A stretch of 31,040 nucleotides of DNA, from the NCBI RefSeq assembly GCF_030013205.1, contig NZ_CP122651.1; one strand, written 5' to 3'. How positions within the stretch are numbered: the stretch's first letter is position 1; the number at the start of each line of letters is the position of its first letter. A program made the position numbers. Origin of the DNA: Escherichia coli. GTDB taxonomy: Bacteria; Pseudomonadota; Gammaproteobacteria; Enterobacterales; Enterobacteriaceae. Of this stretch, positions 6,001 through 9,000 are shown piece after piece.

Positions 6001-9000
6001 GGTCAACAGAATAAAGAGCTGCTCCGCAAATAAGGGATTGTCTGTAGAAATCTCCCCGCATTTGTACTGGGAGAGAGTCTATTGTTTGTTGTGTCAGGTT
6101 GTCCTGCGGATAAAGTGCCGGGTGCAGATATGCCACAACTTTCTTTCTTTTTTTTGGATCACTGCTTTCCATTACGCATGCACCATTGCTTTTACCAATG
6201 CAAACTGAGGTTCATCTACCTTGTTCACTTTCAGATTCGGGAAGTATTGCTTTATGTGAGGGTAAATAAGCTCGGCTCCCCCGCCTGTGAGGTAGATTCG
6301 GTTCATTCCTGAGAATGTTGAAATTTCCTGCCTGATGCTTTCTGCCAGAGATTTCACCTCACTGTCTATTACATGAGTAATATTTTTTATTTCAGCCACA
6401 TCATTTATTAATGTCTGGAGATATTCATTATCATGCCTGTTTTTTATTAACTCATCAGCAATAAAATAATTGCAGGGTGTGGAGGCTTTTGTTAGTGCAT
6501 TCATGACGGTATGAGTTATGCGGGATGTCCCGATTTCTGAATAGCCACGGATTTCAGAAATGCCTTCAAATGCACCGAGAATTAAACCACAATCCAGAGT
6601 GGTTCCTCCAAGATCGATAATCAGGCTGCGTTCAAGTTTGTTTACTTTATCTTTTTTTAGTGATTCAAATGCAGCCGGCAAAGATTCAGGCATTACATTA
6701 ACTTTTTTAATTTTAAATGTTTCCCCTTTATTCAGAGATATCTCACGGAGAACATTTGCCTTTTTTCTTTCTATTCTTTCTTCATTTGGTTGATTGTCAT
6801 TATCAAAGAATTCGGTTACAGGTAATGTTACTGTCAGTTCTACATCCTGTGGCTGAAGGCCGGATGTCAGCAGTGCATGATGTATGGCAAGCAGATTGGT
6901 GGTGCTGTATTGATAACTGACATGTGTTGTACCTATGACAGCAGTGCTGCCCAAATCATAGGTGTATTTTTTTCCATCCACGACGTAATTGTAAACTTTG
7001 CCGGCATTAAACAGTCCCGGGTTCCAGCCTTCTTTAAAGCTGTTTCCTGACAGACTGGTTCTTACCTCGCCATCTTCAAGCCAGGCCAGTTTTACGTTAG
7101 TTGAACCATCATCGCATGATACTTTTAGCATTCTTTTTGCCTCGTTTTGAGTTTGTGTTTGTCTCAAATTGAGCATCTTTTATGTCGATGCATCTTTTTG
7201 AGTTTTTGTTATTTCTTATTGTGTCTCATTTTGGGTTAATGTCAAGTAATGTGACTCTTTTAGAGTCTCCTTGTGTTCTTGCTGTAACTCAATTTGAGTC
7301 GTTACTGGTTTCTCATTTTGCGTCACAAACTGAGACGGAAACTACTTAACCAGGCCGTGCCGGCACGTTAACCGGGCTGCATCCGATGCAAGTGTGTCGC
7401 TGTCGCCGGCCTCCTCACCCGGTCACGTTTCGTCGTTCCTCCTCCACGCGCTGCGGCTTCGGGGCCGCACCTGCATTCGTATGCGGTCGCCCGGTTACAG
7501 GTGCGGCACGGCCTGATGGAGGCCGCATGTGAGAGGAGAATTCCCATGCCAAACTGGTGCTCAAATCGTATGCATTTTTCTGGTGAACCGGCACAGATTG
7601 CTGAGATTAAACGACTGGCCAGCGGTGCAGTCACACCGTTTTATCGCCGCGCCACAAATGAAGGTATTCAGCTGTTTCTGGCCGGAAGTGCCGGACTTCT
7701 GCAGACCACTGAAGATGTGCAGTTTGAACCGTGCCCCGGAGTGACGGCTGCCGGACGTGGTGTTGTATCGCCGGAGAATATCGCGTTCACCCGCTGGCTG
7801 ACACACCTGCAGAACGGTGTGCTACTGGATGAACAAAACTGCCTGATGCTGCATGAACTCTGGCTGCAGAGTGGTACTGGCCAGCGTCGCTGGGAAGGAT
7901 TACCGGATGAGGTCAGGGAAACCATCACCGTGCATTTCACCGCCAAAAGAGGTGACTGGTGTGGCTTCTGGAGTAACGAGGATGTATCGGTGTGGTGGAA
8001 CCGTCTGTGTGACAATGTACTGCCGGAAAAAACCATGCCGTTTGACCTGCTGACGGTTCTGCCCACCCGCCTGGATGTTGAAGTGAATGGCTTTAACGGT
8101 GGTGTTCTGAACGGTGTTCCTTCTGCGTATCACTGGTATACGGAACAGTATGGCGTGAAGTGGCCTGTGGGGTATGAGGTGAATATCAGCAGTCAGGGAG
8201 ACAACTTCATTCAGGTTGATTTCGACACGCCGTGGTGTCAGCCGGAAAGCGACGTTATTGCAGAATTAAGCCGCCGTTTCGGCTGCACACTGGAGCACTG
8301 GTATGCCGAGCAGGGCTGCAATTTCTGTGGCTGGCAGCGATATGAGCGTGGAGAGCTTGTTGATGTCCTGTGGGGGGAACTGGAATGGTCTTCCCCGACA
8401 GATGACGATGAGCTGCCGGAAGTCACCGGACCTGCGTGGATTGTCGACAAGGTGGCGCATTACGGTGGATGAATTCTGACGGAGACGGGCGGGCAACCGC
8501 CCGTTTCTTTTCCGACAAAGGATGTCGCCGTGCTCCTCTTTTTACTGCGCCGGCTGACGCGGCGCGGCAGGAACGCTGCCTGTGGTCAGTGTCCCGCGTC
8601 CGGCCGGGCACGGGACGGGCGCTTTTACCGCTTCCGGCTGGCGTTGGTGACAGTGTACGCCAGCCCGTCGCCCTTTTCTGATGAACGCCCTTCAAGCCGC
8701 TTTCGCGGCATATCCTCGCCGTCAAAAAGACGACGGCTGCGGTATTCCACGGTCGGCCTGACCCGTTACCGGACGCGGTGAACAGCCCACAGGCAGCGGG
8801 GAACGGGCACCACAGGGGTGCCCTCCCGGTGCCCTCTGTAAGAGAAGGAGTGCTGTTATGTCCCGTTTTATCCAGGGTGACTGCGTGCGTGTTATGGCCA
8901 CGTTTCCGGGCAATGCTGTCGATTTCATCCTCACCGACCCGCCGTATCTCGTCGGTTTCCGTGACCGTTCCGGGCGCACCATCGCCGGCGATAAAACCGA

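Follow-up and report, generated by a model that had tools for sequence, protein, structure and literature searches.

A predicted parC-like site of eight dispersed boxes upstream of the parM-parR operon in an IncFII-family plasmid of Escherichia coli

What is the function of the short repeats that directly precede an actin-like partition operon in a 31,040-nucleotide stretch of E. coli plasmid DNA (the window)? The first-pass annotation described at least six copies of a motif, TCTCAWTTTGRG, in both orientations upstream of a ParM-like gene, and interpreted them as a type II centromere and autoregulated promoter, to be aligned with the centromere regions of plasmids R1 (parC) or R100 (stb). Judging from sequence comparison, positions 7141-7334 very probably represent a parC (stbC) cis site, belonging to the type II ParMRC cassette of an IncFII-family plasmid from E. 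coli.

The window is nearly identical to plasmid NZ_CP122646.1 of E. coli ETEC4079 (100% over 22 kb), a 36.5-kb non-mobilisable replicon with an IncFII-family RepA and sepA. No other partition genes (sopAB, parAB) occur in the annotated record of NZ_CP122646.1. The parM-parR operon is intact and located on the minus strand directly downstream of the boxes. ParM matches the R1 ParM crystal structures (E = 2e-80) and contains the Pfam StbA_N and ParM C-terminal domains, while ParR matches Pfam Plasmid_stab_B (PF10784; E = 2e-28) and the pB171 ParR structure 2JD3 (E = 6e-18); the assignment of the cluster to the upstream side of a ParM-like partition operon is thus confirmed. ParM is 49% identical to the pB171-type ParM, and ParR is 39% and 30% identical to the ParR proteins of pB171 and R1, respectively. 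The C-terminal residue L129 of ParR is invariant across eight lineages, which is consistent with a ParM-binding tail. RefSeq annotates parM and parR in NZ_CP122646.1, in pTC1 and in hundreds of related plasmids, and the database records annotate only these two genes and nothing in the region upstream of parM. The neighbours of the cluster include a GC-rich hairpin element and a DUF1281 gene. The repA and CopA loci, both of IncFII type, are located about 9.5 kb away, and no parA lies beside the cluster, so that it does not form a double par locus of the pB171 style. The features of the region are listed below in the direction of parM transcription.

7141..7334 (-), predicted parC-like region: eight putative ParR boxes, par promoter and parM leader
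7324..7334 (-), box a, CTCAGTTTGTG; 9/11 match; the most distal, weakest and least conserved box
7312..7322 (-), box b, CGCAAAATGAG; 10/11 match; 10/11 columns invariant
7288..7298 (-), box c, CTCAAATTGAG; 11/11 match; perfect palindrome
7255..7265 (-), box d, CTCTAAAAGAG; 9/11 match; 11/11 columns invariant in nine variants
7240..7245 (-), predicted -35 hexamer TTGACA; invariant among variants
7225..7235 (-), box e, CCCAAAATGAG; 10/11 match; inside the promoter spacer
7218..7223 (-), predicted -10 hexamer CACAAT; ACAATAAG invariant among variants
7192..7202 (-), box f, CTCAAAAAGAT; 9/11 match; in the predicted leader; 10/11 columns invariant
7163..7173 (-), box g, CTCAATTTGAG; 11/11 match; perfect palindrome; in the predicted leader
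7141..7151 (-), box h, CTCAAAACGAG; 10/11 match; overlaps the Shine-Dalgarno sequence
6172..7131 (-), parM (stbA), actin-like ATPase of 319 aa; ATG at 7131
5777..6172 (-), parR (stbB), ribbon-helix-helix adaptor and repressor of 131 aa, WP_000445930.1

Altogether we identified eight copies of an 11-bp dyad box, CTCAWWWTGAG, that match at 9 or more of 11 positions within 7141-7334; the cluster reported earlier therefore stands, and its count is corrected from at least six to eight. Boxes a, d and f match at just 9/11 positions. Statistical significance was assessed against 5000 shuffles of 7132-7345 that preserve dinucleotides and thereby the 35% G+C of this interval. None of the shuffles reached the observed counts at the thresholds of 9/11 (eight boxes, 0.25 expected) or 10/11 (five boxes, 0.024 expected). 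These p-values are somewhat optimistic, since the box pattern was taken post hoc from the sequence under test, but the size of the effect is very large. A count within the expectation for AT-rich DNA had been named as the result that would argue against a centromere, and the excess holds.

The originally proposed motif, TCTCAWTTTGRG, has 11 matches with at most two mismatches in the 31-kb window versus 9.2 expected, and thus shows no window-wide excess over chance. Eight of these matches fall inside 7140-7335 at six distinct places, two of which are palindromic and were scored on both strands, whereas only 0.14 matches are expected in local shuffles of 7132-7345 and none of 5000 shuffles reached eight. 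For this motif only the clustering test is informative, the window-wide count being uninformative. Outside 6900-7500, no 214-bp segment of the window contains more than two core boxes, not even in its AT-rich parts. In the whole plasmid NZ_CP122646.1 all five sites matching at 10/11 or better are in the cluster and none elsewhere. Two weak 9/11 matches, at 5525 and 5556, are located downstream of parR within a TIR-domain gene.

The core of the box is a CTC-N5-GAG dyad around an A/T centre, and the extended consensus reads A-CTCAAAATGAG-aCACA, with the first flanking base after the core also given as N. By the criteria of an A-rich centre and the 3' flank, most copies are oriented like parM, and because the flanks are asymmetric the units mostly behave as direct repeats toward parM. 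The occurrence of copies in both orientations, as originally described, is largely explained by the dyad symmetry of the box itself. Box d forms the core of a 15-bp inverted repeat, GACTCTAAAAGAGTC; its substitutions are symmetric, and another factor could use it. Start-to-start spacings from box a to box h equal 12, 24, 33, 30, 33, 29 and 22 bp, with 11-22 bp of poorly conserved DNA between most boxes. Tandem Repeats Finder detected no array in 7100-7400, and an iteron array in the R1 sense was rejected on this ground.

The best sigma-70-like promoter predicted in 5600-7600 (TTGACA-16-CACAAT, 10/12 match) is on the parM strand at 7245-7218, within the cluster. Boxes a-c lie upstream of this predicted promoter, and boxes d and f flank it on either side. 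The -35 hexamer is separated by 9 bp from the proximal edge of box d, and the 16-bp spacer is occupied by box e. The remaining boxes f, g and h are in a predicted leader of about 80 nt. The Shine-Dalgarno sequence GAGG at 7141-7144 is within box h and ends 9 nt before the parM ATG; the cluster begins 10 bp upstream of this codon. A longer in-frame parM start at 7176 was rejected; the ATG at 7131 is favoured by the Shine-Dalgarno sequence and the RefSeq annotation.

A sensitive blastn search with 7120-7345 retrieved 367 plasmids of Escherichia, Shigella and Salmonella at 85-100% identity, including Shigella flexneri pINV-type plasmids, pO111_3, pB7A_77 and pTC1, and every record inspected belongs to the same par lineage. 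Across nine locus variants spanning 85-100% identity, 76 of 88 box columns (86%) are invariant versus 53 of 106 spacer columns (50%; Fisher p = 6e-8, nine variants). The spacer value drops to 45% once the promoter hexamers, both invariant across the nine variants, are left out. Indels occur between boxes only; E. albertii, for instance, has one of 10 bp between boxes e and f. Different plasmid backbones cease to be homologous near 7352, so that the cluster occupies the upstream end of the mobile par module.

The distance between adjacent boxes is 1.1-3.1 helical turns in the window and 2.2-5.0 turns in the other lineages. When all lineages are pooled, the spacings lean to integral turns (Rayleigh test at a fixed period of 10.5 bp, p ~0.005, n=15). 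Phasing of the window's eight sites is not significant for spacings (p ~0.13) or for absolute positions (p ~0.35), and placement of the boxes on the same face of the helix is therefore a tentative suggestion.

The parMRC (stbAB) loci of R1 and R100 have the same operon order, with a cis site upstream of parM and repeats that flank a TTGACA promoter and extend into the leader, as in the window, and they would operate by the same mechanism. However, R1 parC is composed of ten direct repeats, five in each of two blocks (Dam and Gerdes 1994, via PMC9426499, PMC5016525). In the R1-type locus TTGACA stands between two tandem arrays, each of contiguous A/C-rich 11-bp direct repeats (Tandem Repeats Finder period 11), whereas the window's boxes are dispersed 12-33 bp apart. 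The structurally studied centromeres of R1 and pSK41 both have contiguous repeats, unlike the window. No similarity to R1 parC was detected by blastn with 7120-7345, the box sequence is unrelated to the R1 iterons, and the presumed DNA-reading beta-strand of R1 ParR differs from that of the window's ParR. At least 1624 plasmids carry an R1-type ParM versus the 367 blastn matches to the window's cis region. The arrangement is thus not that of R1/R100, and the alignment with R1 parC that the first-pass annotation recommended would have failed, because the window has no tandem arrays and no similarity to R1 iterons. The element appears to work like R1 parC while falling outside the R1 parC sequence family. 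A further likeness is found in the centromere-operators of the Omega/ParG type (pSM19035 parS, TP228 parH), in which short boxes for ribbon-helix-helix dimers, in direct or inverted orientation, overlap promoters and double as operator and centromere (PMC5016525, PMC3130281). In contrast to the window, these belong to type Ib (ParA) systems, their boxes, 7 bp or 4 bp long, adjoin or almost adjoin each other, and their proteins show no sequence relationship.

The regions upstream of parM were also compared for eight further ParR lineages from the plasmid collection, seven of them alignable with the window's ParR at 26-39% identity. Six of the eight show an enrichment of the core box upstream of parM; their ParRs are 28-39% identical to that of the window where aligned. 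Within about 240 bp, each of these six contains 2-5 boxes that match at 10/11 or better, versus approximately 0.02 expected (0/2000 shuffles), while the flanking 3.3-3.5 kb of each locus contain 0-2 boxes. The box-positive group includes the pB171-type double par locus, its Enterobacter relative, and IncI1, Klebsiella IncFII/IncR, Serratia and Arsenophonus plasmids. The core box is absent from the R1-type locus (none at 9/11 or better) and from one 293-kb E. coli plasmid. Box-positive ParRs have a common N-terminal strand, (K/R)K-x3-YL(H/Q), whereas the box-negative ParRs have RR-TIAF-KLN (R1) and KR-LLVW-LR. This correlation over eight sequences fits a model in which the ribbon of the ribbon-helix-helix fold would read the box.

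The nearest characterised relative of the element is the pB171 ParR site. In pB171 par1 (parM-parR, parC1; ParR = 2JD3) the ParR is of the same fold and family, and the same core, CTCARATTGAG, occurs upstream of parM in a dispersed arrangement with 41-bp spacing, not in tandem. The ParR of the pB171-type locus equals the crystallised pB171 ParR over residues 2-113. Of the window's boxes, c is the same as the promoter-distal pB171-type box and g is the reverse complement of that box. The two sites differ in several respects: the pB171-type locus has two boxes and the window's locus eight, the pB171 cis region is common with a divergent type Ib parAB locus that the window's region does without, and the box is flanked as GAGTATT in pB171 but as GAG-NCACA in the window. 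The pB171 repeats described by Ringgaard in 2007 are reportedly 10 bp long. The pB171-type boxes found here presumably correspond to these published repeats; no other two-copy repeat adjoins parM in the pB171-type locus, and binding of pB171 ParR to two repeats ahead of parM has been reported (PMC9426499).

The closest experimentally tested relative is the StbAB system of the Shigella pINV plasmid, with a ParR about 96% and a cis region about 87% identical to those of the window. The stbAB locus of pINV (pWR100) and those of the E. coli IncF relatives pTC1, pO111_3 and pB7A_77 are of the same lineage and show no difference in kind: their ParRs are 93-100% identical, their cis regions 85-100% identical, and all eight boxes and the promoter are kept. 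The pINV stbAB stabilises a test plasmid (pSTAB) approximately 10-fold and the substitution D173E, at an ATPase residue of StbA, abolishes this effect; the same study neither maps nor discusses the StbAB centromere (PMC6519299).

Taken together, the genes, the bracketing of the promoter, the conservation and the recurrence in ParR lineages support the original interpretation of the region as a candidate type II centromere with an autoregulated promoter. We infer ParR binding, repression, centromere activity and a wrapped geometry on the general ParR/parC model that underlies the proposed mechanism (PMC5016525, PMC9426499). Under this model a ribbon-helix-helix dimer of ParR, the product of the operon's second gene, would occupy each box, and cooperative binding, probably filling the DNA between boxes, would wrap about 190 bp into one nucleoprotein complex. 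This complex would cover the promoter from box d, just ahead of the -35 hexamer, through the spacer (box e) and into the leader (boxes f-h), where box h lies over the ribosome-binding site. With both promoter and ribosome-binding site covered, the operon would therefore be autorepressed, as we propose. The same complex would present the C-terminal tails of ParR, which would capture the ends of ParM filaments, and sister plasmids would be pushed apart.

In some par systems the centromere is downstream of the operon, as with parC2 of pB171 par2. The boxes might likewise serve only to autoregulate the promoter, with the centromere placed elsewhere or a subset of boxes sufficient for it. The pB171-type loci hold just two boxes, so eight are not needed for recognition, and the weak matches at 5525 and 5556 are on the downstream side of parR. 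However, those two matches are within a TIR-domain gene, the whole plasmid offers no other site at 10/11 or better, and in every type II system characterised, one site serves as both ParR operator and centromere (PMC5016525, PMC9426499). We consider an operator without centromere function improbable.

An RNA-level role, in which the boxes would be leader hairpins or a terminator and not protein-binding DNA, is very improbable. Although boxes f-h are in the predicted leader and box d was called terminator-like on the plus strand in a scan, five of the eight boxes lie upstream of or within the promoter and are therefore not transcribed with parM. The stems have just 3-4 bp, no upstream feature on the plus strand requires termination, and an Rfam search of the region matched no family. 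Moreover, lineages whose leaders are otherwise unrelated contain this box as well. Replication iterons, host-factor sites or chance low-complexity AT-rich repeats can hardly be credited at all and are already largely refuted by the shuffles and the cross-lineage recurrence: the region has 35% G+C and 'iteron' clusters elsewhere often mark origins, but composition-preserving shuffles never came near the observed count, the replicon is of the IncFII repA/CopA type, ~9.5 kb off, with control by antisense RNA and not iterons, and the boxes accompany parM-parR on backbones that are unrelated to each other (IncF, IncI1, Serratia). Even combined, these three alternatives to a parC-like centromere remain quite unlikely.

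A more speculative extension of the centromere interpretation, which we regard as possible though doubtful, is that distant ParRs read the same box, CTCAAATTGAG, so that nominally different ParMRC systems cross-bind each other's centromeres, and that ParR coats spread from dispersed boxes. The lineages that have the box in common are carried on unrelated backbones (IncF/pINV, pB171, IncI1, Klebsiella IncFII/IncR and Serratia) and possess the KK..YLH strand that is missing in R1. If the extension is true, partition incompatibility or co-segregation could arise between otherwise compatible plasmids, and lineages might differ mainly in the number of boxes (2 to 8) and in their flanks. Dispersed boxes approximately 2-4 helical turns apart would then act as nucleation points from which a ParR coat extends along non-specific DNA, in contrast to the contiguous arrays of R1 and pSK41. 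A full-text literature search for the box sequence returned nothing relevant.

The element appears to be the cis site of a familiar kind of partition system, unannotated but ordinary and expected, and it leaves the established ParMRC picture unchanged. A description of the centromere of this lineage was not found in the literature, nor was a mapping of the StbAB centromere of the Shigella invasion plasmid. The mildly interesting aspects are the dispersed eight-box architecture and the presence of one box in common between distant ParR lineages. The site would mark where widespread virulence and resistance plasmids of E. coli and Shigella are held for segregation, and its eight boxes provide precise targets for footprinting, incompatibility-based plasmid curing and fluorescent plasmid tagging. 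The box common to distant ParR lineages would offer a simple testable handle on the evolution of partition specificity.

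Among the eight predicted ParR boxes (a-h; core CTCAWWWTGAG) upstream of parM, box d stands apart. The perfect inverted repeat GACTCTAAAAGAGTC (7253-7267, 15 bp) has this box as its core, and two symmetric substitutions, A4 to T and T8 to A, separate the box from the consensus. Across the nine aligned variants of the locus all 11 of its positions are invariant, and it is the sole box conserved to this degree. Its affinity may differ from that of the other boxes, or its partner may be a different one.

The interval between boxes f and g carries sequence features of its own. A perfect 8-bp palindrome, GATGCATC, occupies 7184-7191, and GCATCTTTT occurs twice, at 7173-7181 and 7190-7198. 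AAAAAGATGCA is unchanged in all nine variants. The box model leaves both the palindrome and the GCATCTTTT copies unaccounted for; they could represent a second protein site or a feature of a leader RNA.

Two weak box matches, TACAATTTGAG and ATAATTTTGAG (9/11 positions each), were noted on the other side of the operon within 5525-5566. They lie ~210-250 bp past the parR stop codon, inside the 3' end of a TIR-domain gene, and are probably due to chance.

In L016 and L017, the parM loci of IncI1 and Klebsiella plasmids, respectively, the top 7-mers reveal another family of repeats, based on TGCAGCAAGAT/ATCTTGCTGCA and present in inverted copies. These repeats are located on the upstream side of the ParR boxes, at about -245 to -145 from the parM ATG, and adjoin an upstream ParA-family gene. 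They may be the site of a second, ParA-family partition system.

The surroundings of the par cluster include the following features:

7351-7515, GC-rich stretch adjoining the upstream end of the par cluster and shortly preceding the DUF1281 gene
7570-8472, DUF1281 gene
9542-11548, 668-aa ORF with a QPQQ repeat at its start and a TraI C-terminal domain (PF07057) at its end
4295-4989, insA/insB ORFs of an IS1 copy immediately 5' of the TIR-domain gene (region 4295-5635)
16642-16731, CopA antisense RNA of the IncFII replicon (Rfam RF00042, 97.8 bits)

When folded as single-stranded DNA, the GC-rich stretch forms a single long imperfect hairpin from either strand (about -50 kcal/mol, z about -3.5 to -3.8). 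An Rfam search of this hairpin returned no matching family; the element resembles the Frpo/ssi-type single-strand promoter elements in the leading regions of F-like plasmids. With 5700-7400 as the query, ~4,100 plasmids gave a partial match only, and the matched part is assumed to be the end of the query on the hairpin side.

The 668-aa ORF is located directly 3' of a leading-region DNA methylase gene, and no CDS is annotated at its position in the record of the near-identical plasmid NZ_CP122646.1. Most of the transfer region appears to have been deleted, with the leading region fused to the traI 3' end, traX and finO, which is consistent with the typing of NZ_CP122646.1 as non-mobilizable. 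The TIR-domain gene product comprises 213 aa in the window versus 298 aa in the related E. coli plasmid pTC1, indicating that ~89 first codons have been lost here. Finally, the CopA match shows that copy-number control of this plasmid is RNA-based rather than iteron-based.
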